64,000 nt of DNA, taken from positions 1 through 64,000 of the forward strand of contig JBHGAY010000024.1 of the NCBI GenBank assembly GCA_041946735.1, read 5' to 3'. Position 1 is the first letter of the stretch. The number at the start of each line of letters is the position of its first letter. Origin of the DNA: Candidatus Eiseniibacteriota bacterium. Its GTDB lineage: Bacteria; Eisenbacteria; RBG-16-71-46; CAIMUX01; VGJL01. The notes below the pieces were generated by a model. The model made no database searches, was not told the DNA's origin, and worked only from the letters and a program-made list of their open reading frames with translations. The position numbers were made by a program, and so were the translations under genes. This document shows, piece after piece, positions 6,221 through 63,034 of the stretch.

Positions 6221-6305
6221 CTAAAGCGACGACGCGGCGCCGCTGCCCGGGATCGACTCCCGGCAGTGGCGCCGCGCCGTTTTTCGAGGGCGATCCGTTC
6301 CGCGC

Positions 6306-14019: not shown

Positions 14020-14032
14020 GCTCTCGTCCCGC

Positions 14033-15331: not shown

Positions 15332-16290
15332 CGGGCCGCCTCCTTCGCGAAGTAGGTGAGGATCAGATCCGCTCCGGCGCGGCGGATCGCGGTCAGCGTC
15401 TCGAGCGCCGCCGCGCGCCGGTCGATCCAGCCCCGCTCGGCGGCCGCGCACAGCATCGCGTACTCGCCCGATACGTTGTAGGCGGCCACCGGCAGGTCGA
15501 ACTCGCTGCGCACGCGCAGGATCACGTCGAGATAGGCAAGCGCCGGCTTCACCATCACGATGTCGGCCCCTTCCTCGACGTCGAGCGCGACCTCGCGCAG
15601 CGCCTCGCGCGCGTTCGCCGGATCCATCTGGTATCCCTTCCGGTCGCCCGAACGCGGCGTCGATTCGGCCGCTTCCCGAAACGGACCGTAATAGGCGCTC
15701 GCATACTTGGCGGCGTAGGAGCAGATCGCCGTCTGCTCGAAACCCGCCTCGTCGAGCGCGGAGCGGATCGCGCCGACCCGTCCGTCCATCATGTCGGACG
15801 GAGCGACCACGTCGGCGCCGGCGCGCGCATACGCGAGGGCCGCGCGCGCGAGCAGGTCGAGCGTCGCGTCGTTGTCGACCGTCCCGTCGCGCAAGACGCC
15901 GCAATGTCCGTGGTCGGTGTACTCGCAGAGGCAGACGTCCGCCCAGATCGAAAGCCCCGGCAGCGACTCGCGCAGCGCGCGGATCGCCCGCGGCACGATC
16001 CCCTCGTCGTCGTAGCCCTCCGTGCCGGTGGCATCCTTGCGCTCCGGAATCCCGAAGAGGATGACCGCCGGGACGCCGGCGGCCTGCGCCTCGCTGCACT
16101 CCTCGACGAGACGGTCGATCGAGAGCCGCTCGACCCCCGGCATCGAGGAGACCGGCTCGCGGAGCCCGCTCCCATGCCTCACGAACAACGGCAGGATCAG
16201 ATCGTCGACCGAGAGACGCGTCTCGCGGACCATTCGCCGTATCGTCTCGTTGCGCCGCAAGCGCCGGGGGCGCTCGGCCGGAAAGCTCAT
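15319..16290 (-). CDS. hemB: Porphobilinogen synthase (Zn-type)
   Basis: [50 protein letters not shown]. Confidence 0.97.
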
Positions 16291-35141: not shown

Positions 35142-37964
35142 TTGGCTCTGGAGACGTATCGCAAGAAGAGGGACTTCCGCCGGACGCCCGAGCCTCGCGG
35201 CACCGTCCGTCGCCCGCGCGGTTCGCTCCTCTTCGTCATCCAGAAGCACGCGGCCCGCCGGCTCCACTACGATTTCCGTCTCGAGATGCACGGAGTGCTG
35301 AAGAGCTGGGCCGTTCCCAAGGGACCGAGCTACGACCCGAACGAGAAGCGCCTCGCTGTCCACGTCGAGGACCACCCGATCGAGTACGGCGACTTCGAGG
35401 GGATCATCCCGAAGGGGGAGTACGGAGGCGGCACCGTCCTCCTCTGGGACCGAGGAACGTGGACGCCGCTGGGCGACCCCGAGGAAGGCTACCGCGCGGG
35501 GAAGTTCGCCTTCACGTTGCACGGCGAGAAGCTGCAGGGCGACTGGGCCCTCGTCCGCATGAAGGGCCGCGACGACGAGCCGGGCAAGGAGAACTGGCTC
35601 CTCATCAAGGAGAAGGACGACCGGGTGATCCCGCAGTCCGAGTGGGACGTCACCGCAGAGCGCCCCGAAAGCGTTGCGACCGGACGCAGCATGGAGCAGA
35701 TCGCGGCGGACGCCGACCGCGTGTGGGACAGCCAGACCGGCGAGCGCGAGCCGGAGCCTGCCGGCAAGCGGCGCGCCGCGGCGCCGCCAAAGACCCCCGC
35801 GCGCGCCACGGCCGGGCGAGATGCCGCCGCTCGCGCCGCGGCCAAGCCGCGCGCCGCGAAACAGGCCGAGCGCAAGACGGTGCACGCGAAGGGCGACTTT
35901 CGCCTCCCCGTCCCCGAGCCGACGGCGATCCCCGGCGCGCGACGCGCCGCGCTCCCCGCCTTCGTCGAACCGGCGCTCGCGACCCTCGCGAAGGAGGCCC
36001 CGCAGGGATCGGACTGGCTCCACGAGATCAAGTTCGACGGCTACCGGATCCTCTGCCGCATCGACGGCGGGCAGGTCCGCCTGTTCTCGCGCAACCGTCA
36101 CGACTGGACTTCGCGCCTCCCGTCCGTCGTCCGGGCGGCGGCGGATCTGCCGGCGCGCAGCGCGATCCTCGACGGAGAGGTGGTGATCCTGCGTCCCGAC
36201 GGCACGACCTCCTTCCAGGACTTGCAGAACGCGATCGCCGAGGGAGGCCGCGGCGCGTCGATCCTTTACTACGCGTTCGACCTGATCCACCTGGACGGCT
36301 ACGACCTGCGCGCGGTCCCCCTGGTCGAGCGCAAGGAGGCGCTCGCCGGCCTCGTCAGCCGCCGCGAGGGCGGCCAGGGGACGATCCGCTTCAGCGACCA
36401 CATCCAGGGACGGAGCGAGGAGTTCTTCCGCCACGCCTGCCGCTATTCGCTCGAAGGGATCGTCTCGAAGCGGGCTGACTCCCCCTATCGATCCGGGCGC
36501 AGCAAAGACTGGCTGAAGATCAAGTGCGTCCAACGGCAGGAGTTCGTCATCGCCGGCTACACCCGTCCCGAGGGAAGCCGCGAGGGGTTCGGCGCGCTGC
36601 TGCTCGGCGTCCACGACCGGCAGGGACGCCTCCACTATGCGGGGCGCGTCGGCACCGGCTTCACCGACGCGACGCTCAGCGACCTGATGCGCCGCATGCG
36701 CCCGCTCGTGACCGCTTCCCCCGCCTTCGTCGACCCGCCTCGGGGGGCCGCCGCGCGTGGCTCCACCTGGCTCCGCCCGTCGCTCGTCGGCGAGGTCGAG
36801 TTCACCGAGTGGACGAGGGACGGACAGCTCCGCCATCCCTCCTTCAAGGGATTGCGCGAGGATCGCGACCCGAAGGAGGTCGTCCGCGAGGAGATCGGCC
36901 TCCCGGTCGAGGTCGGAGGCGACGAAGCGGAGCCGGAGGAGCCGGCGCAGCCGGGCCATAAGGCGAAGGCGCCCGCAGCCGCGCGCGCGCGTGCCGGTGC
37001 CCGCCGCGCTCGCGTTCCCGCTCCCGCGAAGGCTCCCGCCGCTTCCGGCGCAACAACCCCTCCGTCCGACCCGGTCGTCGCCGGCGTCCGCATCACGCAT
37101 CCGGATCGCATCCTCTGGCCGGAGCAGGGAATCGAGAAGATCACGCTCGCGCGCTACTACGAGACGGTCGCCGGCTGGATGCTTCCCCACCTCGCCAACC
37201 GGCCGATCATGCTGCGCCGCTGTCCCGAGGGCCGTCACCGCGCCTGCTTCTACCAGAAGCACGCGACCGACGGCACGCCCGAGGCGATCGGCCGCGTCGA
37301 GATCCGGGAGCAGGACGGCGTCGACACCTCGCTCTACATCGACGATGCCGCCGGCCTGCTCTCCGCGATCCAGCTCGGCTCCCTCGAGATCCACCATTGG
37401 ACCGCGCGCATCGACAAGATCGAGCAGCCGGACCAGATGATCCTCGACCTCGATCCGGACCCGAGCGTCGTATGGCCCCGCGTCGTCGAGGCGGCGCACC
37501 TGCTGCGCGTCCGCCTCGAGGACCTCGGCCTCCGCTCCTTCCCGAAGACGACGGGCGGCAAGGGCCTGCACGTCGTCGTCCCGCTGGCCCGCCGTCACGG
37601 TTGGGACGAAGTGAAGTCGTTCTCGCGCGCCGTGGCCCAGTCGATCGTCGCGCTCGATCCCACCCGCTTCACCGCCACGGTCTCGAAGCGCGCGCGGGGC
37701 GGGAAGATCTACATCGACTACCTCCGCAACGCGCGCGGGGCGACGGCGATCGCCCCCTACTCGACACGGGTCCACCCGGCGGCGCCGGTCGCCACGCCGC
37801 TCGCGTGGGACGAGGTCCGAGAGGAGATCCGCTCCGACACGTTCCACATCGGCAACGTCCCCGACCGGCTTCGCCGCCTCCGGAAGGATCCCTGGGAGGA
37901 CATCGGCAAGCTCCGCCAGTCGATCACCGCGCCGATGCAGCGCAAGCTCCTCGGGCGAGGCTGA
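35142..37964 (+). CDS. ligD: DNA ligase D (phosphoesterase-ligase-polymerase), NHEJ
   Basis: YRKKRDF, QKHAARRLHYDFRLE (PE); EIKFDGYR, EGIVSK (ligase); DLDP, KTTGGKGLHV, IDYLRN (Pol); TTG start with AAGGAG upstream. Confidence 0.95.
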   Translation: MALETYRKKRDFRRTPEPRGTVRRPRGSLLFVIQKHAARRLHYDFRLEMHGVLKSWAVPKGPSYDPNEKRLAVHVEDHPIEYGDFEGIIPKGEYGGGTVLLWDRGTWTPLGDPEEGYRAGKFAFTLHGEKLQGDWALVRMKGRDDEPGKENWLLIKEKDDRVIPQSEWDVTAERPESVATGRSMEQIAADADRVWDSQTGEREPEPAGKRRAAAPPKTPARATAGRDAAARAAAKPRAAKQAERKTVHAKGDFRLPVPEPTAIPGARRAALPAFVEPALATLAKEAPQGSDWLHEIKFDGYRILCRIDGGQVRLFSRNRHDWTSRLPSVVRAAADLPARSAILDGEVVILRPDGTTSFQDLQNAIAEGGRGASILYYAFDLIHLDGYDLRAVPLVERKEALAGLVSRREGGQGTIRFSDHIQGRSEEFFRHACRYSLEGIVSKRADSPYRSGRSKDWLKIKCVQRQEFVIAGYTRPEGSREGFGALLLGVHDRQGRLHYAGRVGTGFTDATLSDLMRRMRPLVTASPAFVDPPRGAAARGSTWLRPSLVGEVEFTEWTRDGQLRHPSFKGLREDRDPKEVVREEIGLPVEVGGDEAEPEEPAQPGHKAKAPAAARARAGARRARVPAPAKAPAASGATTPPSDPVVAGVRITHPDRILWPEQGIEKITLARYYETVAGWMLPHLANRPIMLRRCPEGRHRACFYQKHATDGTPEAIGRVEIREQDGVDTSLYIDDAAGLLSAIQLGSLEIHHWTARIDKIEQPDQMILDLDPDPSVVWPRVVEAAHLLRVRLEDLGLRSFPKTTGGKGLHVVVPLARRHGWDEVKSFSRAVAQSIVALDPTRFTATVSKRARGGKIYIDYLRNARGATAIAPYSTRVHPAAPVATPLAWDEVREEIRSDTFHIGNVPDRLRRLRKDPWEDIGKLRQSITAPMQRKLLGRG

Positions 37965-39799: not shown

Positions 39800-41002
39800 C
39801 TACTCCGCCGCCAAGGCCTCCACCGGATCGAGGGAGGCCGCCCGGCGCGCCGGCAGGATCCCGCTCGCCAGCCCGACCACGAAGCTCACGCCGAGCGCGA
39901 GGAGCACGTAGAGGAGGGGCGTCCGCACGGGAAGCGCGGGAATCGCCGCGTGGATCAGCCGCGCGAGCCCGATGCCGGCGGCGAGCCCCAGAATCCCGCC
40001 GCCCGTCGAGAGGACGAGCGCCTCGGCGAGGAAGAGCGCGAGGATCTGCCCCGGGGTGGCGCCGAGCGCCTTCTCGAGGCCGATCTCGGCGGTCCTCTCG
40101 TTGACCGAGATCCACATCATCGTGAGGATGCCGATCGCGCCGACGAGCAGCGAGATCGCGCCGATTCCGACGACGGCGAGGCTCACGATCCGCAGGATGC
40201 GGTCGAGCGTCTCCAGCATCCCGGTCTGGGTCGTGATCGAGAAGTCCTCTTCCCCGTCGTGACGCTCCGCGAGCACCGCCTCGATCCGCGCCGAGACCGA
40301 GTCGACGACGGAGAGGTTCGAGAAGACGACGTCGATCTCGGTCAGTTCGTCCTTGTTGAAGAGCGGCATCGCGAGGGTCACCGGAATGTACGCAGCGTCG
40401 TCGATGTCGAAGCCGAGGAACTGCCCCTTCGGCTCCATCACTCCGATCACGCGGAATCTCTGCCCGCCGATCCGCACGTGCTCGCCGAGCGCGTTCTTCT
40501 CGCCGAACAGCTCGCGCTTGAGGGTCGGGCCGAGCACCGCCTCGGCGGATCCGCCGTACGCGCCGGCGTTGGGCAGGAAGCGGCCGACACGCACCGACAT
40601 CCCCCATGCGGCCGCGGCGTCCCTCGTCGCGCCGTAGACGAAGACGCTGCGCGAACGCCCCGCGTACTCGACCGGCGCCGTCCCGACCGACGCCGGCACG
40701 ACCGTCTGCACTCCCCGAACGCGGGTCACGGCTTCGGCGTCGCCGATCGTCAGGGGATGGACCGTCCCGCCGATCGCGGCCGGCACCCCCGTCGTCTCCG
40801 TCCTCCCCGGGTGGATGGCGGCGAGATTCGTCCCGAACTGCGTGAACTCCGACAGGATGTAGAGGCGCGTGCCCTCCCCGATCGACGTGAGCAGGATCAC
40901 CGAGGCGATGCCGATGAGGATTCCGAGCATCGTCAGGGCGGACCGTTGGCGGTGGCCGCGCACGGCGCGCAACGCCGAGCCGACGACGTCCTCGAAGATC
41001 AT
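39800..41002 (-). CDS. MacB/FtsX-family ABC permease
   Basis: RSALTMLGILIG, SLLVGAIGI, ERTAEIGL, LDPVEAL. Confidence 0.92.
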   Translation of the reverse strand: MIFEDVVGSALRAVRGHRQRSALTMLGILIGIASVILLTSIGEGTRLYILSEFTQFGTNLAAIHPGRTETTGVPAAIGGTVHPLTIGDAEAVTRVRGVQTVVPASVGTAPVEYAGRSRSVFVYGATRDAAAAWGMSVRVGRFLPNAGAYGGSAEAVLGPTLKRELFGEKNALGEHVRIGGQRFRVIGVMEPKGQFLGFDIDDAAYIPVTLAMPLFNKDELTEIDVVFSNLSVVDSVSARIEAVLAERHDGEEDFSITTQTGMLETLDRILRIVSLAVVGIGAISLLVGAIGILTMMWISVNERTAEIGLEKALGATPGQILALFLAEALVLSTGGGILGLAAGIGLARLIHAAIPALPVRTPLLYVLLALGVSFVVGLASGILPARRAASLDPVEALAAE

Positions 41003-42204
41003 CCCCGCCTCCGCATCAGGGCCTGGATCGGATCGAGACGCGCTGCGCGCCGGGCCGGCAGGATCCCGAACGCGAGCCCGACCGAAGTCGAGACGGCGAG
41101 CGCGGCGACGACCGCCCAGACGGGGGGACGCGCCGGAAAGTCCGGGAAGAAGCCCTGGAAGATCCGGCCCCCGAGGATGCCGATCGCGAGGCCGAGGATC
41201 CCGCCCGCGGTCGAGAGGATCGACGCCTCGAGCAGGAACACGGCGACGATCTGGCGGGAGCCGACGCCGACCGCCTTCAGCAGTCCGATCTCGCGGGTGC
41301 GCTCGGAGACCGAGACGAGCATCACGTTCATGATCCCGATTCCCGCCACCGAGAGCGAGATCGCGGCGATCCCGGCGAGAGCGGCGGTGAGCATCCCGAG
41401 GATCTTCTGGAACGTCGAGAGGACCGCATCCTGCGTGAGCGTCGTGAAGTCCTCCTCGCCGTCGTGGCGCTGCTTCAGGATCTCGATCGCACGCTCCCGC
41501 GCCGGCTCGATCGCCGGCGCGCTTCGCAGCTCGATCAGCACACGGAAGAGGCTCCGGGCGTTGAGCAGACGCATGCCGGTCTCGATCGGGATGTGGACGG
41601 TCTCGTCCACGTCCATGCCGATCGAGGTGCCTCGCGGCGCGAGCACGCCGATGACGCGGAAGTTCGTGTCGCCGATCCGCACCTTCTCGCCCAGCGGATT
41701 GCGATGGCCGAACAGCTCCTGCTGCACCTTGGCTCCCAGGACGGCGAACGGCGCGTCGCGCGTGCCCGGCGGGAAGTAGCGACCGATCCGCACCGACAGC
41801 TTGCGCACCTCGCGCATGTCGTCGGTCGTCCCAAGCACCATGATGTCTCGGCTCCGGTCGCCGACGCTCGCCGCGGCGCTGCCGACGACGAGCGGAGCGG
41901 CGCGCACGATCTCCGGCATCTGGCGCTCGAGCGCGCCGACGTCCTCGAGGGTCAGGTCGTGCGGCGCGGTGTTGACGACCGGCGCTCCGCCCTGCGTCTC
42001 CGTCTTGCCGGGCAGGAGAATCAGGAGGTTCGAGCCGAGCGACGCGAACTCACCGGTCACGTAGAGCCGCGCCCCTTCTCCGAGGCTCGTCAGGAGGACC
42101 ACCGAGCCGACGCCGATCGCCACGCCGAGCAGCGAGAGGAAGCTCCGGAGGCGATGCCCGCGCAGCGCGCGCAGCGCGTAGCGCGCGAGATCGCGCGCCC
42201 TCAC
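40999..42204 (-). CDS. MacB/FtsX-family ABC permease
   Basis: [43 protein letters not shown] overlap start. Confidence 0.92.
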
Positions 42205-42977
42205 GGCCGCTCCGTACCGGGCGCCGGAGACGCCGGCGGCGCCGGGAATGACGCCGGCGCCTGCTCCGGCGCCGGCGCCACCGCTCCGCTCCGCTGCCGT
42301 TCGTCGGCAACGATCGCCCCGTCGCGCAGCCGGACGCCCCGAGCCGCCCGCGCTCCGATCGCCGGATCGTGCGTGACGATCACGAGCGTGAGCCCCGCCC
42401 GGTTGCGCTCCTCCAGGAGCCCGATGATCTCGCTCCCCGAGACGCTGTCGAGGTTGCCGGTCGGCTCGTCGGCCAGCAGGATCGCCGGCTCCATCACGAC
42501 GGCGCGCGCGATCGCCACGCGTTGGCGCTCCCCACCGGAAAGCTGGTCCGGCCGGTGCTCCGCTCGCGGCGCGAGACCGACCGACTCGAGCGCCCGCGCC
42601 ACGCGCCGCCGCCGATCGGCCGGCTCGACGCCGGCGAACATCATCGGCAGCTCGACGTTCTCCGCGGCCGTCAGGCGGGGCACCAGATGGAAGAACTGGA
42701 AGACGAAGCCGATCTTCTCGCGGCGCACGAGCGACAGCTCGCGATCCGAAAGCTTCGACGTCTCCTGCCCGTCGAGACGGTAGGAGCCGGACGTCGGACG
42801 ATCGAGGCATCCGATGAGGTTCAGCAGCGTGGACTTTCCCGACCCGGAAGGTCCCATGATCGAGACGTACTCGCCGGCGCCGATCGAAAGGTCGACGCCG
42901 CGCAGCGCGAGCACCGGGCGTCCGCCGACCTCGAAGGTCCGCGAGATTCCCGACAGCAGGATCATCGGCTCCGCCAT
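42201..42977 (-). CDS. ABC transporter ATP-binding protein (LolD/MacB-type)
   Basis: [33 protein letters not shown]. Confidence 0.95.
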
Positions 42978-43019
42978 CGCCCGCGCGCTCCGCTCGCTCA
43001 CCTGACCCGCCGCCACCGC

Positions 43020-44174
43020 CTAGCGGCGGGCCGTCCGCTCCGCCACGGTGGCCCGCACTCCTGCCTTCACCTCCGGACGGTCCAGCGAGACGACGACCTC
43101 CTCCCCCTCGCGCAGCCCTCCCGTGATCTCGGCGTACTCCCAGTTGCGCAGTCCGATCCGGACGGGACGGCTCACCAGCCTGCCCTTCTCGACCACGAGC
43201 ACGCGATCCCCCTCGAGGAGCGCGTAGGTCGGGATCCGCACGACGTCCTCCTGCGCCTCGAGAATCACTTCGACGTCGGCGGAGAGCCCCGGCACGAGAT
43301 TCCGTGGAAGATCCTGCTGCGTGAACGTCGCCTCGACGGTCAGCGTGCGGTTCTGCTCCTGGCGCGTCTCGACGAACGAGGAGATGTAGGTCAGCACACC
43401 GGGGAACTCCTGCCCGCGAAAGGCGTCCATCGTGATCCGCACCGGCAGTCCCAGATGGACCTTCGCCACATCGGCCTCATCCAGCGGCGCGCTCACGTAG
43501 AGCGAATCGGGATCAATCAGATCGACGACGGGCGGGATCATCACCCCGGGCGGCGAGGGGGTGATCCATTCGCCGACCTCGGTCGTCACGTCGAGGACGA
43601 CCCCGTCGAAGGGGGCGCGAATCACCGTCTTGTCGAGGGCCGCCTGCGCCGCTTCGACCGACGCCTGCGCCTGGCGCGTCTGCTCCCGCGCCGCCTCGCA
43701 CCCCGCCGTCGCGACTTCCGCGTTCGTCCGCGCCTCCTCGAGGCGCTGGTCCGCGATCAACCCCTGCGTCGCGAGCTGCTCGGCCCGCTCGCCGTCACGC
43801 CGCGCCTGATCCGCCGACGCGCACGCCTGTTCCGCCGCAGCGCGCGCCGCCGCGCGCGATCGGTCCGCCTGCGCGAACTGCGCGCGATACTCGGTGTCGT
43901 CGATGCGAAGCAGCACGTCCCCCGCCCGCACCCGTTGCCCTTTGCGCACCGGGATCGCGGCGACCAGCCCAGACACGCCCGGACTCATCTGCGAGCGCCG
44001 GCGGGACTCGACGGTCCCCGCTCTCGTGTTCACCACCGTCGACTCGACGCGGCCGCGCTCAACCGTCGCCACCGTGACGGGCACCGGCTCCGGACGAAAG
44101 ACCGTCCACCGGAGGATGAGGACGACGAGGACGATTCCACCGAGAATCAGAAGCCTGCGTGTCCAACGGCTCAC
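43020..44174 (-). CDS. Efflux periplasmic adaptor (MacA/HlyD family)
   Basis: N-terminal TM, lipoyl half motifs (VRKGQRVRAGD; IRAPFDGVV), coiled coil, PGLSADV. Confidence 0.92.
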   Translation of the reverse strand: MSRWTRRLLILGGIVLVVLILRWTVFRPEPVPVTVATVERGRVESTVVNTRAGTVESRRRSQMSPGVSGLVAAIPVRKGQRVRAGDVLLRIDDTEYRAQFAQADRSRAAARAAAEQACASADQARRDGERAEQLATQGLIADQRLEEARTNAEVATAGCEAAREQTRQAQASVEAAQAALDKTVIRAPFDGVVLDVTTEVGEWITPSPPGVMIPPVVDLIDPDSLYVSAPLDEADVAKVHLGLPVRITMDAFRGQEFPGVLTYISSFVETRQEQNRTLTVEATFTQQDLPRNLVPGLSADVEVILEAQEDVVRIPTYALLEGDRVLVVEKGRLVSRPVRIGLRNWEYAEITGGLREGEEVVVSLDRPEVKAGVRATVAERTARR

Positions 44175-44334
44175 GGGAACCTCGCGTTCGATTGGGTCCT
44201 TCGGGGATCCTAACAGGGGGGCGCAGGGCCGCAAGGCGTGGCGCGGTCGCATGCCGGGGCGCTCGCACCGCCGCCCGAGCTATCGCCCGAGCCGCCGCCC
44301 GAGCCGCCACCATATGCGCCGCGGCACGCGCGCT

Positions 44335-45114
44335 TCAGGGCAGAACCAGGGCCGCCGGTGGAGAGACGCGCAGGAGATCCCCGCCGGAGAGCGCCGCCAC
44401 CCGGCAGAAGACGGTGGCGCCGGAGACGCCCAGACGCGCGAGACGCGCCGGGTCGAGAACCAGGCTCGTGTCCGCCGTCGTCGCCGGCCACGCGGTCTCG
44501 GCGAGCGAGTCGCCATAGAAGAGGATCCGGTAGGAGTCCGCTCCGCGTACGCTTCGCCAGGCAACGCGCACCGATCCACCGGCAATCCGCTCGAACGAAG
44601 GGGCCGGCGTGCTCGAATCGCCCGGCTCGCCGCGCAAGGCAGGCGTCGCCGGCGGGGCCGGAGAGCGCGGCTGTAGCAGCGAGCCGCCTCCCAGTTCGAG
44701 GAAGATCCCGATCACGAGAAGCGCCGCGCCCGCGGCGAGCGCCGGCCGGAACGCGGGAACGAGAAGGCGGGCGAGCCGGCCGAGCGGCCCCGGCGGCCCC
44801 GGCGGCTCGGGCGGGCCGGACCGCCCCCGCCGGCCTGCTTCGCGCCCTTGCTCTGCGTCGCCGTCCGTCCATCCGCGCAGCGACTCCGTCACCGGCAGTC
44901 CCGCCTCCCGCCGGATCGCGCGGGACAAGCGCTCGGCCGCCTCGCGCGGCTCCGCCCCTTCCGGCACGGCCGCCGCGGGATCCAGGAAGAGCTGCAGGGA
45001 ACGCCAGCGCGCCCGGCATCGCGGGCAGCCTTCGAAGTGCGCACGCGCCGGATCGGAAGCGGGAAGCCGATCGATCCGCTCGAGCGATTCGACCGGCGGG
45101 CAGATCTCGGTCAC
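44335..45114 (-). CDS. Putative zinc-finger (ZAS) transmembrane anti-sigma factor
   Basis: HFEGCPRC (HxxxCxxC), one TM helix (LAAGAALLVIGIFL), beta-rich C-terminal domain; GTGA overlap with the sigma gene. Confidence 0.75.
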   Translation of the reverse strand: MTEICPPVESLERIDRLPASDPARAHFEGCPRCRARWRSLQLFLDPAAAVPEGAEPREAAERLSRAIRREAGLPVTESLRGWTDGDAEQGREAGRRGRSGPPEPPGPPGPLGRLARLLVPAFRPALAAGAALLVIGIFLELGGGSLLQPRSPAPPATPALRGEPGDSSTPAPSFERIAGGSVRVAWRSVRGADSYRILFYGDSLAETAWPATTADTSLVLDPARLARLGVSGATVFCRVAALSGGDLLRVSPPAALVLP

Positions 45115-45806
45115 GTTGCGCCTCCTCTTCCTTCGCCTCGCGCGCGATCGTCCGCGACACGGCGTCCGATCGGCGCCGCCGCGCCGCCGGCGTTCACGCG
45201 CCGGCCGAGCGCCGCGGCCTCGTGCTTCGCCCCGTCTTCGAGCGCCGCGCGGAGTTTCCGGCGCGCTCGCTGCAAGATCCCTCGCGCTCCCGACGCGGTG
45301 TCGATCGCGAGCAATCGGGTGATCTCCTCGACCGGCAGCCCCTCGTAGCACCGCAGCCAGATCGCCTCGCGTTCGAGCGGATCGAGGTGCCGCCGAACGA
45401 GCGCCAGCACCGACTCCTCGTCGAGCCTCTTCTCGAGCGTTTCGCTCGGATCGGGCGCCGGATCGGCCACGCGCTCGATCCCTTCTTCGTCCTCGTCGAA
45501 CAGCGGCGAGGGCCGCCGCACGACGCTCAGGCAATGGTTGCGCGCGATCACGAAGAGCCAGGTCGCGAAGCAGCTGCGCCCTTCGTAGCCGGCGATCCCG
45601 CGGTACGCCTTCAACAGCGAGTCCTGAGCCAGGTCGAGCGCCTGCTCGTGGTCCCGCACGATCCGGTAGCACCAGAGGTAGACACGCTCCCGGTAGCGCT
45701 CGAGGAGGACCGAGGCGGCCCGCCTCGCCTCCTCGCCCGCACGATCCTCGCGAGCGATGCAGACCAGCTCGGAGTCGTCGAGCAGCGCCAGATCTCGTTC
45801 GGTCAC
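45111..45806 (-). CDS. ECF RNA polymerase sigma factor
   Basis: Region 2 ALDLAQDSLLKAY...FATWLFVIARNHCLS; region 4 YEGLPVEEITRLL...RARRKLR; C-terminal part of ORF 45111..48932. Confidence 0.9.
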   Translation of the reverse strand: MTERDLALLDDSELVCIAREDRAGEEARRAASVLLERYRERVYLWCYRIVRDHEQALDLAQDSLLKAYRGIAGYEGRSCFATWLFVIARNHCLSVVRRPSPLFDEDEEGIERVADPAPDPSETLEKRLDEESVLALVRRHLDPLEREAIWLRCYEGLPVEEITRLLAIDTASGARGILQRARRKLRAALEDGAKHEAAALGRRVNAGGAAAPIGRRVADDRARGEGRGGAT

Positions 45807-48757
45807 CCCATGGGACGCTCGCTTTCTGAATCCGTCACGCGAACCGTTGCCTCCGGTCCAGGCGGCAGCGTCCGGCCCGCCGCCTCCGGCCGCTCCCCCG
45901 CCGCCGAGAATGAGCGCAACACGATGCCCAGCAGCACGAAGGCGGCGCCGCCGGCGAGGGCGAGCCGGCCCCAGGGCACAGGCCGGGCCGGTTGGATCGG
46001 GATCCGAAGGGAGCCGTCCCCCAGCACGACGAAGCCCGCCCAGAAGAACGGGTGGCGGGTGCGCGGGTCCTCGCGGATCGCCTCGCGCGCGCGCATCAGC
46101 GCGCCCGAAACCGTCGCCCCGCCGGCGAGCTCGTCGTAGAAGCATGCGGCGAAGCGTTGCGCCGCTTCGTCCTCGACCGGCCACAGGGTGGCGGCGACCG
46201 AGGAGGCGCCCGAGCAGAGGAGCGCAGTCGACAACCCCTGCATCCCCTCGCCCGAGACGATCGCCCCTCGCGCCGTGCGGCAGCACGACAGGACGGCCAG
46301 GCGTGCCGGAATGCGGGACGCGGCGATCGCCTTCGCGTGCAGCGGCCGCGCGCCGAGCGCGATCTCCGAGAGCCACGGGCGCCCGTCCTGTCCAAGCGCG
46401 TGCGCGGCGAAGTGGACGACGAGGCGCGGGGCGGCGAGATCGGCGAGGCCGAGCGTGTCGCGCGGCCCGAGGACTCGCAGATCGACCCCGCGATAGGCGC
46501 GCGCGATCCGCTTCGCCTCGCGCGCTGCGCCGGGCAGGCCGATCGTCCCTGCTTGGGGCGCGGCGACCGCCAGGATCGGTCTCGCGAGGAGCGCTTCCGC
46601 GCTGGCCGCGCTCGCGTCCGCGCCGGCCGCGCCCGCTTCCGCCGCCCGGGCTCCGGCCAGGATCGCGGGCGAGGCGATCCTCGTCCACTCGCGGTCCCGG
46701 CCGTCCCCTGCGGCATCGAACGACTCGAACGGGGCGAGGTGGGCGACGCCGTCTGCGGCGACGAGGATCCGATCGCTCTTCGCCACCCAGTCCCCCAGAT
46801 CGGGGAGGAGCGCGCGGCAGAGCGCGGCGGCCGCCATCCGGCATTCGCGCACCCCGGCGCCTCGCGCGGAGTCCGGGCTCGCGAAGAGGTCGAGGACGAG
46901 CCGCACGCCCGGCTCGATCTCCCCTTCGGGAGGAAGCGAGCGGACGCAGCAGGAATCGCGCGTGAACGCGAAGAGCCAGCTCGCCCGGCCGCCGAGATGG
47001 TAGTCGAGGAGCAGCTCGCCGGGCTCGAGCGGCGGCAGGAGCGCCGACGCGGCCGCGCTGCGCGGCAACGCCGTCGCCGGCCCCGCGATCCGCTCGAGGA
47101 GCGTTCGCGCCTTGAAGACGGCGACCCGCTCGTACGCGGCGCGCACCGCGCTCGGTCCCGCCGCCTTCTCCGGATCGGCGCCGAGGAGAAGACCGGCCAG
47201 GCTCGTCGCGATGCTCCGTCCCGCGGCGCTGCGCTGTTCGCGCCACTCGGGATCGAGCGGCAGCCCGCGCTGCGCCTCCCAGACGCGAGCCGCGGCTTCG
47301 AGCGACGCGCGCGCGCTGTCCGGCCGCCCGAGATCGACGAACGCGCGCGCCAGCGCGAGGAGCGTCTCGAGCCGGACCGCATCGAGGCCCGGTCTGGCCG
47401 AGAGCCCAGCAGCGAGGCGCAGGGGCGCCAGCGCCTCCGCGGGCCGTCCCTCCTCGACACGCAGCTCGCCGAGCCGCGCTGCGAGCCTTCCTCTCTCCTC
47501 GGGACCGTCGATCTCCGCGCGCGCGAGCGCCCCTTCGAGGATTGCGATCGCCTCGGCCCTCTCCTGCGCGCTCTCGCACGTGCGGGCGAAGGCGGCGAGC
47601 GCCGCCGCCCGCGTCGCCGCCGGGGCCGGCGGATCCGCCGCGAGAATCTGACGGAAGATGCGGCGCGCCTCGCGCGTCCGGCCCTGCGACGCCCGTGTCT
47701 GCCCGAGCTGCCGTAACAGCTTCGCCCGCAGATCGCCGTATCCCTCCCGCTCGCAGATCGCGAGCATCGCCTCGAGCGAATCGCATGCCTGCTCCGGATC
47801 CCCGAGCTCCGCGGCGCAGAGGGCGAGATTCATCCCTGGGACGATCGACTCCCGCATCTCTCCGTAATCCCGATAGCTCGCCAGAGCCTCGTCGAACGCG
47901 GTCGCCGCTTTCGCCGGATCTCCGAGCCGGTACTCGAGAGTGCCGAGATTGTTGCGGGCGAGGCACGTCACCATCGGATACCGGCAGGAATCGGCGAGGA
48001 CCGCCGCTCGCGCGAACTCCTCGCGCGACCGCTCGTAGGCGCCCGTTCTCCCGAGAGCCACGCCGCGCGAGTTCCGAGCCCACGCCTCGCCGCGCCGCTC
48101 CCCTCCTGCCCGGAAGAGCGCGATCGCGCGATCGAGCGTCGACGCCGCCTCCACCGCGCTGCCTCGCACGACCTGGTCCCACCCGATGCCGACGAGCGCC
48201 CAACCTTCCTGGACGCGATCCCCGCGAAGGCGCGCGAGGACAGCAAGCGAGTCGTAGAGCGCGCGCGCCTCCTCGGTCCGTCCCTGATTGGCGACGGCGA
48301 CCGAGAGCCAGCGGATCGCGACGCAGGCGGAGGCGGAATCGCCGCGTGCGCGCGCGATCGCGAGGCAACGACGGAGGATCGTCTCGCCTTCGCGCGCCGC
48401 GCCGATCGATGCGCGCAGCTCCCCCTCGCGGAGCCCGAGCCACAGCATCCGTCCCGAGTCGCCCTGCGCTTCGGCCTGCTCGCGCAGGCGCTCGATCGCG
48501 GGGAGCGCGGAGTCGGGCCGTCCGGCGAGACGGAGGCGCTCGACCCTCGCGAGATCCGGCGCGAGAGGGGTCGCAGGAGGGAGGAGCGGGCGCGGGCGCG
48601 ACAACGCGCGCGAAGCCAGCGACGGCGCAGGCACCGCGGCGCAGGCGGCCCCGAAGGCGCCCGCGCAGGCGGCGGCGAACACGAGCGCGAGCGCGCAGGC
48701 GCCGCGGCGCAGCCGCAACGCTCGCTCGCCCTTCGCGATCGACCGCAGGGATCGCAT
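45803..48757 (-). CDS. TPR-CHAT (caspase HetF-associated) protease with signal peptide and C-terminal TM anchor
   Basis: Hydrophobic N-terminus; TPRs (ARNNLG, MNLALC); VVHFAAH and LAVLSCCRT (His/Cys dyad), VAATLWPVED, HPFFWAGFVVLG; C-terminal LALAGGAAFVLLGIVL. Confidence 0.88.
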   Translation of the reverse strand: MRSLRSIAKGERALRLRRGACALALVFAAACAGAFGAACAAVPAPSLASRALSRPRPLLPPATPLAPDLARVERLRLAGRPDSALPAIERLREQAEAQGDSGRMLWLGLREGELRASIGAAREGETILRRCLAIARARGDSASACVAIRWLSVAVANQGRTEEARALYDSLAVLARLRGDRVQEGWALVGIGWDQVVRGSAVEAASTLDRAIALFRAGGERRGEAWARNSRGVALGRTGAYERSREEFARAAVLADSCRYPMVTCLARNNLGTLEYRLGDPAKAATAFDEALASYRDYGEMRESIVPGMNLALCAAELGDPEQACDSLEAMLAICEREGYGDLRAKLLRQLGQTRASQGRTREARRIFRQILAADPPAPAATRAAALAAFARTCESAQERAEAIAILEGALARAEIDGPEERGRLAARLGELRVEEGRPAEALAPLRLAAGLSARPGLDAVRLETLLALARAFVDLGRPDSARASLEAAARVWEAQRGLPLDPEWREQRSAAGRSIATSLAGLLLGADPEKAAGPSAVRAAYERVAVFKARTLLERIAGPATALPRSAAASALLPPLEPGELLLDYHLGGRASWLFAFTRDSCCVRSLPPEGEIEPGVRLVLDLFASPDSARGAGVRECRMAAAALCRALLPDLGDWVAKSDRILVAADGVAHLAPFESFDAAGDGRDREWTRIASPAILAGARAAEAGAAGADASAASAEALLARPILAVAAPQAGTIGLPGAAREAKRIARAYRGVDLRVLGPRDTLGLADLAAPRLVVHFAAHALGQDGRPWLSEIALGARPLHAKAIAASRIPARLAVLSCCRTARGAIVSGEGMQGLSTALLCSGASSVAATLWPVEDEAAQRFAACFYDELAGGATVSGALMRAREAIREDPRTRHPFFWAGFVVLGDGSLRIPIQPARPVPWGRLALAGGAAFVLLGIVLRSFSAAGERPEAAGRTLPPGPEATVRVTDSESERPMG

Positions 48758-48942: not shown

Positions 48943-50736
48943 ATGCACGAACGGCCTGTCCTGATGGTCGTCGACGACGACAGCGAGAGTCTGCACCGCC
49001 TCTACGAGGCGCTCGACCGGCGGCTCCACGCCGACTACCGGGTCTCCGCCCACACCTCCGCAGCCGAAGCGGTCGCCGAGCTGCGCCGCATCAAGGAGCT
49101 TGGACATGCGGTCGCGCTCGTGATCGCCGATCAGTGGATGCCGGAGATGACCGGAATCGACCTGCTCGGCGAAGCGCATCTGCTCCATCCTTCGGCGCAG
49201 CGGGCGCTGCTCGTCGATTGGGGGGATCGCACCGCGTCGCCGACCATCCTGCAGGGATGCGCGCTGGGCAAGCTGGAGAACTACATCACGAAGCCCTGGT
49301 CGCCCCCCGAGGTGCACCTCTATCCGCTCGTGGACCAGTTCCTCGCCGACTGGACGCGCGCACACCGCCCACAGATGGAGCTGGTCCGGATCGTCACCGG
49401 CCATCCCTCTCCACGCGGCCACGAAATTCGCGACCTTCTCGTGCGAAGCGGGATCCCGCACGGCTACCACCTCGTTGACTCGGAGACCGGCCATCGACTT
49501 CTCGAGCAGACCGGGCAGGACGGCTCGCGCCTCCCGCTCGTGATCCTGCTCGACGGCCACACGCTGGTCGATCCGACGAACGAGGAGATCTACGACGCGC
49601 TGGGCGCCTCGAACATGGAGGATCGCTTCTGCGACCTGCTCGTGATCGGCGGCGGCCCGGCCGGACTCGCCGCGGCCGTTTACGGAGCGTCCGAGGGCTT
49701 GTCGACCCTCGTGGTCGAGCGCGAGGCGATCGGAGGGCAGGCGTCGACGGCCGCGCTCATCCGCAACTACCTCGGCTTCCCCGCCGGAATCAGCGGCGCC
49801 GATCTCGCGCAGCGCGCCTACAACCAGGCGTGGCTCTTCGGCGCGAAGTTCGTCTTCGCGAGAGGCGCCGTCTCGCTTCACGCGAAGGGGACGAAGAGGA
49901 TCGTGACGCTTTCCGACGGCACGGAGATCACCGCCCGCGCGGTCCTGATCGCGACCGGCGCCTCCTATCGCCGGCTGAACATTCCGAGCGTCGACCGGTT
50001 CTCGGGCGCCGGCGTCTTCTACATCATCCCCTCCCGGGTCTCGCTCTTCCGCGGGCAGAACATCTACATCGCCGGCGGTGGCAACTCGGCCGGCCAGGCG
50101 GTCGTGCATCTCGCCAAGCAGGCGGACCACGTGACCTTGCTCGTGCGGGGAGACTCGCTCGAGAAGGGGATGTCCGACTATCTCGTCCAGCAGATCCGGC
50201 AGACGCCGAACGTCACGGTGCGGCTGCGGACGGAAGTGATCGGCGGCGAGGGGAACGAGACGCTCGAGCGGATCGTCCTGAGGGACCATGCGGCCGGAAA
50301 GGACGAGACGCTCGGGCTCGACGTCCTCTACGTGCTGATCGGCGCTCTCCCTCACACCGACTGGCTCGGCGCGGCGGTGCAACGCGACCGCAATGGCTTC
50401 GTCCGTACGGGCCGCGAGGTCGACACAGGCCGCGCGGCCGGCTGGCCGGCGGGGACCTGGCCGTCGAGGTTCGCCACGAGCCTTCCGGGCGTCTACGCGG
50501 TCGGCGACGTCCGGCTCGGTTCGGTCAAGCGAGTGGCTTCCGCGGTGGGCGAGGGGTCGGTCGCCGTCCAGTACATCCACGACTACCTGGACGATCCCAT
50601 TTCCCTGGAGGATGCCGGTTCGATCCTTGCCGGCGATACGGCGCGGATCGAGGGTCTCCCGACTCCGGAGCGCGTCTCGGTGGAGGCTGCAACGGCGGCG
50701 GCGAAGATGGAGGAACTGCCCCCCGGCCGGGTGTAG
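48943..50736 (+). CDS. Response-regulator receiver-modulated thioredoxin reductase-like FAD oxidoreductase
   Basis: VVDDD...IADQWMPEMTG...YITKPW receiver; IGGGPAG, IGGQA, GGGNSAGQA, AVGDVR, VASAVGEG; RBS AAGGAGG. Confidence 0.9.
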   Translation: MHERPVLMVVDDDSESLHRLYEALDRRLHADYRVSAHTSAAEAVAELRRIKELGHAVALVIADQWMPEMTGIDLLGEAHLLHPSAQRALLVDWGDRTASPTILQGCALGKLENYITKPWSPPEVHLYPLVDQFLADWTRAHRPQMELVRIVTGHPSPRGHEIRDLLVRSGIPHGYHLVDSETGHRLLEQTGQDGSRLPLVILLDGHTLVDPTNEEIYDALGASNMEDRFCDLLVIGGGPAGLAAAVYGASEGLSTLVVEREAIGGQASTAALIRNYLGFPAGISGADLAQRAYNQAWLFGAKFVFARGAVSLHAKGTKRIVTLSDGTEITARAVLIATGASYRRLNIPSVDRFSGAGVFYIIPSRVSLFRGQNIYIAGGGNSAGQAVVHLAKQADHVTLLVRGDSLEKGMSDYLVQQIRQTPNVTVRLRTEVIGGEGNETLERIVLRDHAAGKDETLGLDVLYVLIGALPHTDWLGAAVQRDRNGFVRTGREVDTGRAAGWPAGTWPSRFATSLPGVYAVGDVRLGSVKRVASAVGEGSVAVQYIHDYLDDPISLEDAGSILAGDTARIEGLPTPERVSVEAATAAAKMEELPPGRV

Positions 50737-50747
50737 ACTGGGCGCCA

Positions 50748-51380
50748 ATGAGCGCCCCGCTGCGACCGGAGAGTTGCCCGTGCGTGCCCACGCGCGAAAA
50801 GGGTACTCGACACACCCTACACGCTTTCGCGCTTCTCGGGTTCGTCGTTGTGCTCGTGCTCGCGGGCACGCCGGGCTGCTACACGCAGATCGCTCCGTCC
50901 CTGACGATTCCCCCGCCGGTCGCGGAGTCCCCTCCGGATCGGATCACCGAGGAGCAGGAGGCGGACGGAGACGGTATCGTCACCCGCTCGATCGGTCCGC
51001 TCGGCTTCACGCTTTCCGTGCAGCCGACGCGCTTCCGCGCCGGCGACCCCGTCGTCATCGAGATCACGCTCGACAACTCGAGCCCGACCTTCCCCTATGA
51101 GCGCACCTTCCCGAGCGGCTGCAACGTGGCGTTCGAGGTGCGCGACGAGGGAGGGAGGCTGATCGGGCCGTACCGTGTCTGCGACAACTACGGGAGCGAG
51201 ATCGTCCTCGCCCCCGCCGAGCGCCGGATCTACCGCTACGAATACTATGGCGGCGAGCAGGGATACTTCGGCGGCGAGGGCGAGCTCGAGCCGGGCCGCT
51301 ACTGGGTCACGGCCGGCTTCGTCAGCGGGTCGAGCCTGATGCCCACCGTTCCGCCCGTCGCAATCGAACTGCTGCCCTAG
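50748..51380 (+). CDS. Putative lipoprotein with Ig-like (BsuPI-like) domain
   Basis: Hydrophobic stretch ending TPGC; TFPSGC...FEVRDEGG...LEPGRY; start uncertain. Confidence 0.65.
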   Translation: MSAPLRPESCPCVPTREKGTRHTLHAFALLGFVVVLVLAGTPGCYTQIAPSLTIPPPVAESPPDRITEEQEADGDGIVTRSIGPLGFTLSVQPTRFRAGDPVVIEITLDNSSPTFPYERTFPSGCNVAFEVRDEGGRLIGPYRVCDNYGSEIVLAPAERRIYRYEYYGGEQGYFGGEGELEPGRYWVTAGFVSGSSLMPTVPPVAIELLP

Positions 51381-53994: not shown

Positions 53995-55284
53995 ATGCGA
54001 AGACGAGGCCTCTGGATTCTCCTCGGCACGGTGCTGCTCGCTGCCGCGGTCGTTCTGCTCTCCGGATTCCCGCTGACCGGCAAGGTCAAGATCCCCACGG
54101 CGAAGGTGCGGAAGGGCGATTTCCTGATCTCCCTGAAGGCGACCGGCGAGGTCCAGGCCAAGCGGGCCTACACCGTCGTCGCCCCGCGCATCCGGAACAT
54201 CCAGATCACCTGGATGGCCCCGGAGGGGAGCATGGTCAAGGCCGGCGACGCGGTCATCCGCTTCGACTCCAGCCAGCAGCAGGCCGATCTGGCGGAGAAC
54301 CAGTCGTCCCTCCAGATCAGCCAGACCGCGCTCCAGCGGCAGAAGACGGAGTACGAGATCCAACAGAAGGAGCTTTCGCTCGAGCTGCGTCGCGCCCAGC
54401 GAGCCTACGACGAGCAGAAGCACGAAGCGCCGAAGGTCGCCGAGGAGGCGCGGCTCGCGCTCGAGCTCGCCGAGCTGAACGCGAAGGCGAAGCTCGACCA
54501 GATCGAGGCCGACATCCGCAAGGCGGAGCTCGAGGTGCAGCGCGCCGAGGACAAGGTCGACCTCGCCCAGAAGGAGCTCGACCAGATGACGCTGACCGCC
54601 CCGATCCCGGGGATGGTCGTCTATCTCGAGATCTGGAAGGGAAGCACCATGGGGAAGGTCCAGGAGGGCGACTCTCCCTGGCCGGGACAGGGATTGATCA
54701 ACCTGCCCGACCTGGGCGAGATGATCGTCAACGCGACGGTCTCCGAGGTGGACGCGAGCCGCGTCGACGCCGGCCAGGAGGCTCTCGTCACGCTCGACGC
54801 CTTCCCTGACGTCCGCTTCCAGGGGAAGGTGACCCGCAAGGGAACGCTCGCGCGCCGCAAGGAGCCCGACTCGAAGATCAACGTCTTCGACGTCGAGATC
54901 GCGATCGACGACGTCGACGAGCGCCTGAAGCCCGGAATGTCCGCTTCCGCTCAGATCGTCGTCGACAAGATCCCCGACGTCGTCTCGGTCCCGCTCGAGG
55001 CGGTGTTCGAGTCGGCCGGCTCGCCGGTCGTCTACCTCGAGAATCGCAAGCCGCACACCGTCGCGGTCGGCCGCCGCAATGACATGGAGATCGAGATCAC
55101 CTCGGGACTCGCCGGCGACGAGACGATCTGCCTCGTCGACCCGAAGATCGCGCGCCACGGCCTCCCCGGGGATCGCGCCACCGAGCCGGAGCTGAACCGC
55201 GGTCGGACCGCCCCGTCTCCCGCTCCCACAACGTCCGAGCCGGCCGCGGCCCCCGCGCGACGCGGCCGGGCGAAGTCCGGATGA
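53995..55284 (+). CDS. Efflux periplasmic adaptor (MacA/HlyD family)
   Basis: N-terminal TM, PEGSMVKAGD, long coiled coil, TAPIPGMV, LKPGMSA. Confidence 0.92.
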   Translation: MRRRGLWILLGTVLLAAAVVLLSGFPLTGKVKIPTAKVRKGDFLISLKATGEVQAKRAYTVVAPRIRNIQITWMAPEGSMVKAGDAVIRFDSSQQQADLAENQSSLQISQTALQRQKTEYEIQQKELSLELRRAQRAYDEQKHEAPKVAEEARLALELAELNAKAKLDQIEADIRKAELEVQRAEDKVDLAQKELDQMTLTAPIPGMVVYLEIWKGSTMGKVQEGDSPWPGQGLINLPDLGEMIVNATVSEVDASRVDAGQEALVTLDAFPDVRFQGKVTRKGTLARRKEPDSKINVFDVEIAIDDVDERLKPGMSASAQIVVDKIPDVVSVPLEAVFESAGSPVVYLENRKPHTVAVGRRNDMEIEITSGLAGDETICLVDPKIARHGLPGDRATEPELNRGRTAPSPAPTTSEPAAAPARRGRAKSG

Positions 55285-56588: not shown

Positions 56589-56694
56589 CGCGTTCGAGTC
56601 GGCCGGTCGCCGCGGTGATCCGCGACGCCGTGTCGCTGTCCTTTGGGGTCTCTGTCTCTTGGGGTCTCTGTCTCTCCTCGCGAGGTTGCACGCC

Positions 56695-62846: not shown

Positions 62847-63034
62847 CGGAAACCTCCACTCGAAATGCACAGGAGCGACCCCGTGCGATTCACCCCTCGT
62901 GATGCGAACGGGCCCAATTGTCGCCCCGCCGGAGGCATGTGTCAAACGAAGGCTGCCGGGCACCGGAGCTGACGCGCGGTCCGCTGGCGTGGCGAGTGTC
63001 TTCTCGCGCGACTACGCCCGGGACCCCCGTTGCG

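Follow-up and report, generated by a model that had tools for sequence, protein, structure and literature searches.

The stretch of DNA analysed here (the window) comprises 64,000 nucleotides, positions 1 to 64,000 of contig JBHGAY010000024.1 in the Candidatus Eiseniibacteriota bacterium assembly GCA_041946735.1, and it carries a trio of genes for a TPR-CHAT protein, a sigma factor of the extracytoplasmic function (ECF) type and a single-pass anti-sigma factor. The GC content of the window is about 70%, and raw lists of open reading frames (ORFs) are full of spurious frames; a plot of third-position GC (GC3) picks out three successive frames between 44.3 and 48.8 kb, on the minus strand, as are all features of the trio given below. 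The TPR-CHAT gene (45803..48757), supported by the GC3 frame, the ORF list and Pfam, encodes 984 amino acids (aa) from an ATG, with an in-frame TTG at 48781 as an alternative start. The sigma gene (45111..45806; 231 aa) begins with a GTG that overlaps the CHAT stop codon, and the anti-sigma gene (44335..45114; 259 aa) begins with a GTG that overlaps the sigma stop codon. A first-pass annotation of this DNA had described three genes linked by GTGA overlaps, and both junctions are indeed seen on the coding strand (45806-45803 and 45114-45111); the motifs that it named, HFAAH, LSCC and HxxxCxxC, are all located in the translations (H782/H786, C826 and H26-C33, respectively). In related loci, the overlap between the sigma and anti-sigma genes is 4 nt in ten cases and 8 nt in three.

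The CHAT protein matches the Pfam family CHAT (PF12770) at residues 643-914 with 137.5 bits against a cut-off of 24, as well as several TPR families including TPR_12. Its AlphaFold2 model (predicted local distance difference test, pLDDT, 85.6; predicted template modelling score, pTM, 0.80) consists, in this order, of a helix at residues 11-38, a disordered stretch, a TPR superhelix at residues 67-558 (47084..48559) with helix pairs throughout, a caspase-like CHAT module at residues 581-913 (46019..47017), a profile of which matches the Myxococcus xanthus anti-sigma factor DdvA, a helix at residues 929-950 and a disordered tail. The two motifs of the catalytic module hold H782 and H786 (HFAAH) and C826 (LSCC). 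The presumed catalytic residues His786 (codon 46400..46402) and Cys826 (codon 46280..46282) align with the stretches of DdvA around H862 and C907. All three residues are invariant in the 52 homologues aligned out of 120 listed (52/52), and again in 34 of 34 CHAT modules from loci of several phyla. The family match and the presence of both dyad residues make the protein a putative peptidase, and the invariance of the dyad in both sets indicates that proteolysis is under selection.

The topology of the CHAT protein and of the anti-sigma factor was judged from hydropathy, charge and comparison of homologues. In the CHAT protein, a hydrophobic segment at residues 20-41 (48635..48700; hydropathy 2.12 for segment 21-39) follows an Arg/Lys-rich start and is predicted to be an export signal or an N-terminal anchor; 78 of the 120 homologues have a hydrophobic segment within the first 60 residues, and many of these resemble Sec signal peptides. 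The C-terminal transmembrane helix at residues 929-950 (45908..45973; hydropathy 2.01 for segment 932-950) is a helix in the model as well, and by hydropathy such a segment is present in 104 of the 120 listed homologues. Among the 90 homologues that have both a WAGF motif and the C-terminal helix, the median distance between the two is 19 residues, and the tail past the helix, with a median length of 11 residues, is net positive in 89. A TolC-like protein of the OEP family is encoded in the window (Pfam), and therefore the organism probably has an outer membrane. Judging from the N-terminal segment, the C-terminal helix and the positive tails of the homologues, the CHAT protein is predicted to be periplasmic and tethered by its C-terminal anchor, with the catalytic module not far from the periplasmic surface of the inner membrane. 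The proposal of the first-pass annotation that an extracytoplasmic, membrane-tethered protein with a His/Cys dyad is encoded here thus holds at the level of prediction for its location, and its dyad proved to be invariant.

The sigma factor has regions 2 and 4 only and thus belongs to the ECF group (group 4) of the sigma-70 family. Pfam detects Sigma70_r2 at residues 34-98 (E 3.7e-14) and r4_2 (E 1.3e-4), and the NCBIfam model for ECF sigma factors (sigma70-ECF, TIGR02937) gives 80.6 bits against a cut-off of 42.9; no named NCBIfam equivalog reached its cut-off for this protein. Its relatives in the PDB are ECF factors of the AlgU/RpoE/SigE/SigH/SigW type. The window protein has a C-terminal tail of about 40 residues rich in Ala, Gly and Arg (residues ~190-231; 45111-45240), which is absent from the orthologues of 194-225 aa.

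The anti-sigma factor has no Pfam match, and its match to an NCBIfam anti-sigma model is weak (E 0.0035). Its structural model (pLDDT 77.5) comprises a helical domain at residues 8-71, a transmembrane helix at residues 123-143, a segment with pLDDT<50 at residues 148-164 and a beta-sandwich at residues 170-259 (44338..44607) with pLDDT>90. The N-terminal HxxxCxxC motif (HFEGCPRC; H26, C30 and C33; 45016..45039) falls within the helical domain, as in class I zinc-binding anti-sigma factors (ZAS), and forms a C-H-C-C set with C5 (45100-45102). Hydropathy places the transmembrane helix at residues 125-143 (44686..44742; value 2.05), and one transmembrane segment is present in all 19 anti-sigma factors aligned from the related loci. 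The top Foldseek matches of the beta-sandwich are FN3 domains (E ~1e-4, template modelling score, TM-score, 0.5-0.66 on the target). The protein is therefore predicted to be single-pass with its N-terminus inside, and the external beta domain suggested by the first-pass annotation can now be described as FN3-like. Translational coupling of the two genes suggests that this protein binds the sigma factor.

To describe the conservation of the trio, one genome per species was scanned with the CHAT alignment, and the best 80 of 562 confirmed loci were analysed. The close set consists of 24 loci, namely 23 with a CHAT phmmer E<1e-50 and L066, in which the CHAT gene is a fragment at a contig end. In 18 of the 24, an orthologous sigma gene (E<=4e-40) adjoins the CHAT gene and an anti-sigma gene follows directly after it; the latter was recognized by phmmer in 16 loci, and by inspection and alignment in L022 and L066. 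The gene order is CHAT-sigma-anti-sigma in 14 of these loci and sigma-anti-sigma-CHAT in 4. Three loci interrupted by contig ends (L006, L014 and L017) fall outside the assessable set, and the CHAT gene keeps a sigma/anti-sigma pair in 20 of the 21 assessable close loci, where the paralogous trios of L001, L012 and L018 come from one metagenome-assembled genome (MAG) and those of L009 and L013 from another. At a wider scale, a hidden Markov model (HMM) built from the orthologous sigma factors detects an ECF-like gene no more than 2.5 kb from CHAT in 44 of the 80 loci; it has 44 matches in the 345,667 bp near CHAT, versus 1 in the outer flanks of these loci (352,938 bp). Among 26 non-orthologous sigma ORFs, 23 show sigma-70 regions by Pfam, and those of L026, L030 and L067 show nothing at E<=0.01. 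Conservation of the triplet, which the first-pass annotation had put forward as a check, is thereby well supported.

The ECF-near-CHAT loci occur in four gene orientations. Seventeen of the 44 are convergent, all of them Bacteroidota-titled except the Aminicenantes locus L069; here the 3' end of the CHAT gene, whose product has a signal segment and a C-terminal transmembrane segment, overlaps a pair of minus-strand genes, the first for an ECF-like sigma factor and the second for a single-pass partner of 234-255 aa that has a TPR ectodomain but lacks a zinc motif. The split trio spans Eisenbacteria- and Krumholzibacteria-like, Bacteroidota, Acidobacteriota and Aminicenantes MAGs, and the full-length anti-sigma factors among the 150 best representative matches (see below) fall into at least 126 distinct clusters at 50% identity. 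We are highly confident that CHAT, sigma and anti-sigma form a real, conserved functional unit.

Some of these loci show features of their own. A different and unrelated pair of an ECF factor and a zinc-motif anti-sigma factor lies upstream of a close CHAT homologue in L005 (4188-8811) and L023 (4320-8640), and Pfam assigns the anti-sigma ectodomain of L023 to the DUF4384 type. The convergent 3' overlap is about 10-30 nt in L016, L026, L029, L032, L036, L037, L038, L051, L054, L061, L063, L067, L070 and L071; for example, in L016 the CHAT gene occupies 4339-7095 (plus strand), the anti-sigma-like gene 7075-7791 (minus strand) and the sigma gene 7796-8338 (minus strand). In L010 (22-2576, 5602-10963), the CHAT homologue is followed by a gene with a secretin domain and a gene with a VWA domain, and about 3 kb upstream there is an ECF-like gene and then a gene for a 683-aa zinc-motif protein with a transmembrane segment at residues 430-448.

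The most conserved features of the anti-sigma family include an arginine in the linker just outside the membrane. Only 5 columns are invariant in the alignment of 19 anti-sigma factors (A2), and Arg161 (codon 44632..44634; motif A-L-R-G), 18 residues past the transmembrane helix, is among them. A profile search against 1.84 billion representatives gave 837 matches at E<=1e-30, a number to which giant FN3-repeat proteins contribute unduly; among the best 150 of these, 126 are full-length (190-290 aa), and they were aligned with the window protein. This position is Arg in 127/127 aligned sequences; counted from it as P1, the P2 residue is Leu in 103 and the P1' residue is Gly in 90. Across the aligned family the Arg is found 8-22 residues past the transmembrane helix, and in the window protein it falls in the 148-164 segment, the sole disordered part of the periplasmic region. 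In L001 (9264-10025), the linker contains tandem H-S-P-D-V-like pentapeptides between the transmembrane helix and the Arg, which thus stands 41 residues from the membrane versus 11-19 in the other 18 aligned loci.

Similar motifs occur in partners with other ectodomains. The unrelated DUF4384-type anti-sigma factors of L005 and L023 read SPLVLRD and SPLVLRG after the transmembrane segment. The TPR-type anti-sigma factors of Bacteroidota share a block Y-x-N-x-V-x-P-x-V-R-G, and at one aligned position 14 of 16 have V/Q-R-G/S and the other 2 have K-S. The FN3-type partners in the Aminicenantes-titled loci have Y-R-G or Y-R-S at a matching distance from the FN3 Trp. A (V/L)-R-(G/S/D)-like motif is therefore found in two unrelated anti-sigma families adjoining CHAT genes. 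An Arg that is kept across ectodomain types, at a distance from the membrane similar to that of the tethered CHAT module, would look like a shared cleavage or recognition site. Proteases of the same clan as CHAT (separase, gingipain R, clostripain and metacaspases) cleave on the C-terminal side of Arg or Lys. For separase, cleavage after Arg is also stated in the study of DdvA (PMC11506125, the part of it used here, as in all citations of it below). Arg161 is accordingly a candidate site-1 (P1) site, and in the explanation that we favour, with confidence slightly above even, the site-1 cut in the anti-sigma factor would be made after this residue by its partner, the tethered CHAT protease.

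The zinc motif bears on a different explanation, in which the CHAT protein would be the main output of the sigma factor in an autoregulated operon, degrading envelope or foreign proteins, and the sigma factor would be freed otherwise, for instance by oxidation of the zinc motif. Conservation of this motif (117 of 126 anti-sigma relatives; C5 in 119, H26 in 118, C30 in 123 and C33 in 123 of the 127 aligned members) would permit redox control, the CHAT gene comes first in 14 of the 18 orthologous loci, and Pfam analysis of 73 flanking proteins from 21 loci found no consistent fourth gene, so that no other conserved neighbour could serve as the target. However, 3 of the 19 aligned anti-sigma factors (L007, L022 and L066) lack the zinc motif yet retain both the Arg and the FN3 domain, and in the partners of the Bacteroidota type the zinc motif is absent altogether. 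In addition, no autoregulatory promoter motif was detected in 17 upstream regions: in a search for 5-mer/4-mer dyads with a spacer of 10-18, at most 4 of the 17 regions share a dyad, the same as in shuffled sequence. Finally, the specific docking on CHAT predicted below would be unexpected if CHAT were a mere target gene. On balance, we consider a role of CHAT as the output improbable. By eye, a GGAAC...ATAC resemblance can be seen upstream of the operons in L003, L009, L015 and L021.

The contact between the CHAT protein and its proposed substrate was modelled with CHAT residues 49-931 and anti-sigma residues 144-259, using a separate alignment for either partner. The interaction prediction score from aligned errors (ipSAE) is 0.68 (0.71, 0.68 and 0.66 in individual runs) versus 0.00 for the best of 3 controls; the score mark, which 116 of 157 solved complexes and 2 of 215 mismatched pairs attain, is a rough guide here, the alignments being user-supplied. 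The runs share at least 42% of the contacts, and the partner pLDDT is at least 72. The confident interface is formed by FN3 residues 171, 198-206, 234-238, 244-247 and 252-255 on one side and by CHAT helices 613-649 and loop 359-363 on the other, with helices 611-626 and 636-650 of the CHAT module as the predicted docking helices. To our knowledge, there is no solved structure of an FN3-CHAT complex on which the model could have drawn. The model supports binding of the anti-sigma ectodomain to the CHAT protein, and the complex check suggested by the first-pass annotation had, in this respect, a positive outcome.

At the same time, these confident contacts lie away from the linker and would suit a CHAT protein that acts as a co-sensor or co-anti-sigma factor, shielding the anti-sigma factor via its ectodomain or passing on a conformational signal, as RseB does on RseA; its own proteolytic activity would then act on itself or on further periplasmic substrates, and another protease would cut at the Arg. 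Pairing with CHAT persists as the type of ectodomain varies (FN3, DUF4384 or TPR), which fits such a role, and the TPR-CHAT domain of DdvA is reported to block RseP sterically (PMC11506125). However, the dyad is invariant in both the 52 and the 34 sequences, the unrelated anti-sigma families have in common only the Arg motif of the linker and no binding domain, and no second protease is conserved beside the trio among the flanking proteins analysed with Pfam. We find the co-sensor role rather unlikely.

In classical regulated intramembrane proteolysis (RIP), as in the action of DegS/RseP on RseA and of PrsW/RasP on RsiW, a site-1 cut outside the membrane turns the anti-sigma stub into a site-2 substrate. 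The trio resembles these systems in its single-pass anti-sigma factor with the putative sigma-binding domain inside the cell, and its sigma factor resembles ECF factors of the AlgU/RpoE/SigW type. In contrast, the classical site-1 enzymes are a serine protease or a metalloprotease encoded elsewhere, whereas here the enzyme would be a clan-CD cysteine protease from the same operon. In the mechanism that we propose, the TPR-CHAT protein would be exported, and its C-terminal helix would keep the catalytic module at a distance of about 19 residues from the inner membrane. The cytoplasmic zinc-motif domain of the anti-sigma factor would hold the ECF sigma factor, and its periplasmic FN3-like domain would dock on the CHAT module. 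Upon a signal, CHAT would cut the anti-sigma factor in its disordered juxtamembrane linker, after Arg161; the short remaining stub would become a substrate of an RseP-type site-2 protease, and the sigma factor would be released. The parts of this scheme that we infer are binding of the sigma factor, the occurrence and the place of the cut at Arg161, site-2 proteolysis, the signal and the regulon.

The CHAT protein was compared with known structures by sequence and by fold. Searches of the PDB with single protein sequences gave just a TPR match or nothing meaningful, and a profile of the full-length CHAT protein was swamped by TPR proteins; a profile limited to the CHAT module worked and had DdvA (8rot_B) as its best match (E 1.5e-10), followed by the TPR-CHAT proteins of craspase (~7e-8) and by separase (~4e-5). 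By fold, the CHAT protein matches separase (9hma, E 3.2e-13), DdvA (8rw5, E 1.7e-12; 8rot_A, E ~2e-12) and Csx29 (8eey_B, E 1.3e-10). The alignments of the CHAT-module profile begin after three helices at residues 611-660, and DdvA is described as having no 'three alpha-helix motif' (PMC11506125).

DdvA is a single polypeptide in which a C-H-C-C zinc domain and one transmembrane helix are followed by a flexible linker (Q95-S143) and then by a TPR-CHAT domain in the periplasm; it was proposed that upon a signal the linker is cut in trans within a homodimer and that RseP acts next (PMC11506125). In the same study, truncated DdvA without TPR-CHAT underwent RseP-dependent degradation, and the bulky TPR-CHAT was regarded as a steric block to RseP. 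The DdvA-DdvS pair (PMC11506125; 8rot, 8rw5) therefore resembles the trio in having an ECF sigma factor and a single-pass C-H-C-C anti-sigma factor, a periplasmic TPR-CHAT with a His-Cys dyad, a juxtamembrane linker as the proposed cut site and a proposed RseP step. It differs in that TPR-CHAT is fused to the anti-sigma factor and itself forms the ectodomain, whereas here the protease is separate and has a putative signal sequence and a C-terminal anchor of its own, and the ectodomain of the anti-sigma factor is small and FN3-like. The window trio falls outside the DdvA family as defined by a single polypeptide, its genes having their own starts, stops and membrane segments. DdvA was also reported to control a CBASS/CRISPR island (PMC11506125), whereas no defence genes are found near the trio in the window. 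By analogy, the system is best read as a split, trans-acting version of DdvA-DdvS. The idea of the first-pass annotation that a periplasmic TPR-CHAT protein acts with a sigma/anti-sigma pair is partly supported, but it missed DdvA as the closest precedent, and what it presented is a split variant of a published model: as the same site-1 role has been proposed for DdvA, the one suggested here is not a new category.

The DdvA study is also the source of arguments on a further possibility, that cleavage at the Arg is constitutive maturation similar to that of the self-cleaving anti-sigma factors of the RsgI or FoxR type, performed or assisted by CHAT, after which the fragments would stay together until the signal. 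Anti-sigma factors that are cleaved in advance have precedents (PMC11506125), and the FN3 domain, predicted to be docked on CHAT, could hold a cleaved ectodomain in place. On the other hand, the TPR-CHAT proteases studied so far, separase and craspase, are kept inactive and switched on allosterically (PMC11506125), and constitutive processing seems to us very improbable.

Several observations weigh against the CHAT protein as the site-1 protease. In the predicted complex, the confident contacts go through the FN3 domain and not through the linker, and Arg161 is not placed in the active site. A short hydrophobic-Arg-Gly motif arises easily by chance in single sequences, and the weight of the linker motif is in its invariance within aligned families. 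One close locus with full flanks, L010, has no adjacent sigma/anti-sigma pair, and 36 of the 80 CHAT loci have no nearby ECF gene by the HMM used. No ECF-type promoter is shared by the regions upstream of the operons, and Pfam finds no gene for a site-2 protease (M50 peptidase) in the window. The C-terminal tail of the window CHAT protein itself is not net positive across its first 12 residues. Finally, the site-1 role of CHAT is described as unproven even for DdvA, whose dyad mutants behaved like the wild type in unstimulated cells and which showed no autocleavage on Mx4 infection (PMC11506125).

If the CHAT protein is nevertheless the site-1 protease in the window, a broader generalization can be put forward, which we offer tentatively and hold to be somewhat less probable than not: tethered periplasmic TPR-CHAT proteins may be dedicated, signal-gated site-1 proteases of a large unrecognized class of three-component ECF systems in Bacteroidota, Eisenbacteria- and Krumholzibacteria-like bacteria, Acidobacteriota and Aminicenantes. 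Unrelated ectodomains would be recognized via a short juxtamembrane degron, hydrophobic-hydrophobic-Arg, cut before Gly, Ser or Asp, and the fused DdvA would be a rare derived form. DdvA-like fusions are reported, in the part of the study cited here, only in Myxococcota and one Comamonas, and a CHAT-based site-1 cut is termed 'unprecedented' there (PMC11506125). The trio suggests that ECF control of the CHAT type is far more widespread than reported. The CHAT step of DdvA could be neither induced nor detected in that study, and the fact that the protease and the substrate are one polypeptide makes it hard to test (PMC11506125); here the protease and the substrate are separate and a candidate cut site can be named, and therefore the question of a CHAT site-1 protease becomes directly testable. 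If the proposal is true, a caspase-like enzyme joins the known routes by which ECF sigma factors are released, and a function can be assigned to many 'CHAT domain-containing' and 'TPR repeat' proteins of poorly known phyla.

Other known systems share parts of this arrangement. In the craspase of type III-E CRISPR, the substrate of a TPR-CHAT protease controls a sigma factor: Csx29 cuts Csx30, a protein that binds an ECF sigma factor (PMC10028731, the part of it used here); however, craspase works in the cytoplasm in a complex with Cas7-11, RNA activates it, and Csx30 is not a membrane anti-sigma factor, whereas the CHAT protein of the window is predicted to be periplasmic and membrane-anchored. 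Identity with craspase was ruled out, as there is no Cas gene in the window and the CHAT protein has a signal-like N-terminus and a C-terminal transmembrane helix. The actinobacterial group ECF54 has a conserved neighbourhood that includes a CHAT protein with TPRs, but it differs in its subtilase and carboxypeptidase-regulatory-like neighbours and in having no predicted anti-sigma factor (PMC7826278, in its descriptive text). This context was excluded too: neither neighbour occurs in the window, an anti-sigma factor is present, and the relatives come from MAGs of the Fibrobacterota-Chlorobiota-Bacteroidota (FCB) type. The descriptive text of the ECF classification names CHAT under ECF54 only, and its tables could list CHAT for other groups (PMC7826278). 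Separase, the partner of securin, is the best overall fold match of the CHAT protein, with a TPR-like superhelix and a caspase-like domain; it is eukaryotic, soluble and cytoplasmic or nuclear, and the global TM-scores against the CHAT protein are low, 0.27-0.50. In the literature, we found no description of a split system of CHAT, ECF and anti-sigma proteins.

Downstream of the trio and on the same strand, the window contains genes of a MacAB-like efflux pump (39800..44252, minus strand), namely an HlyD-type adaptor (43020..44252), an ABC ATPase (42201..43016) and two MacB/FtsX permeases (40999..42204 and 39800..41002). This pump is a possible local target outside the conserved module; as a conserved target it was rejected, since L007 and L019 are the only loci in which relatives are found close to the trio. 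A defence-system reading was likewise dropped: PADLOC, applied to the three module proteins only, gave a TPR match and a weak partial match to BovA (E 7.7e-7) that spans some 80 residues in the CHAT core, and Pfam finds no defence or Cas families among the 43 neighbouring genes of the window.

Divergent from the CHAT operon is a gene (48943-50736, plus strand) whose product is a fusion of a response-regulator receiver domain with a pyridine-nucleotide-disulphide oxidoreductase, and in L066 a Pyr_redox gene is found directly after the trio. At 2 kb from the protease gene, a small protein (50850-51380, plus strand) has a weak match to BsuPI, 'intracellular proteinase inhibitor' (E 6.8e-5); no relatives of it were found in the related loci. 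A FlgD_ig C-terminal domain recurs on proteases and beta-helix proteins beside the trio in L004, L012, L018, L019, L022 and L033, and two large, predicted secreted proteins of the window (2719-6018 and 60072-62870, both on the minus strand) have a C-terminal domain of the FlgD_ig type. A second efflux set similar to MacA/MacB/TolC (HlyD, MacB_PCD-FtsX and OEP) is encoded at 54031-58200 (plus strand). Within a heme cluster (11450-21007) that contains genes for HemN, URO-D, a HemL-like protein, ALAD, porphobilinogen (PBG) deaminase, glutamyl-tRNA reductase (GluTR) and a cytochrome c assembly protein, one gene (16287-17879, minus strand) encodes a TetR-type helix-turn-helix domain fused to uroporphyrinogen-III synthase (HEM4). 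Finally, the gene at 35142-37964 (plus strand) encodes a full-length LigD of 940 aa with phosphoesterase, ATP-dependent ligase and primase-polymerase domains.

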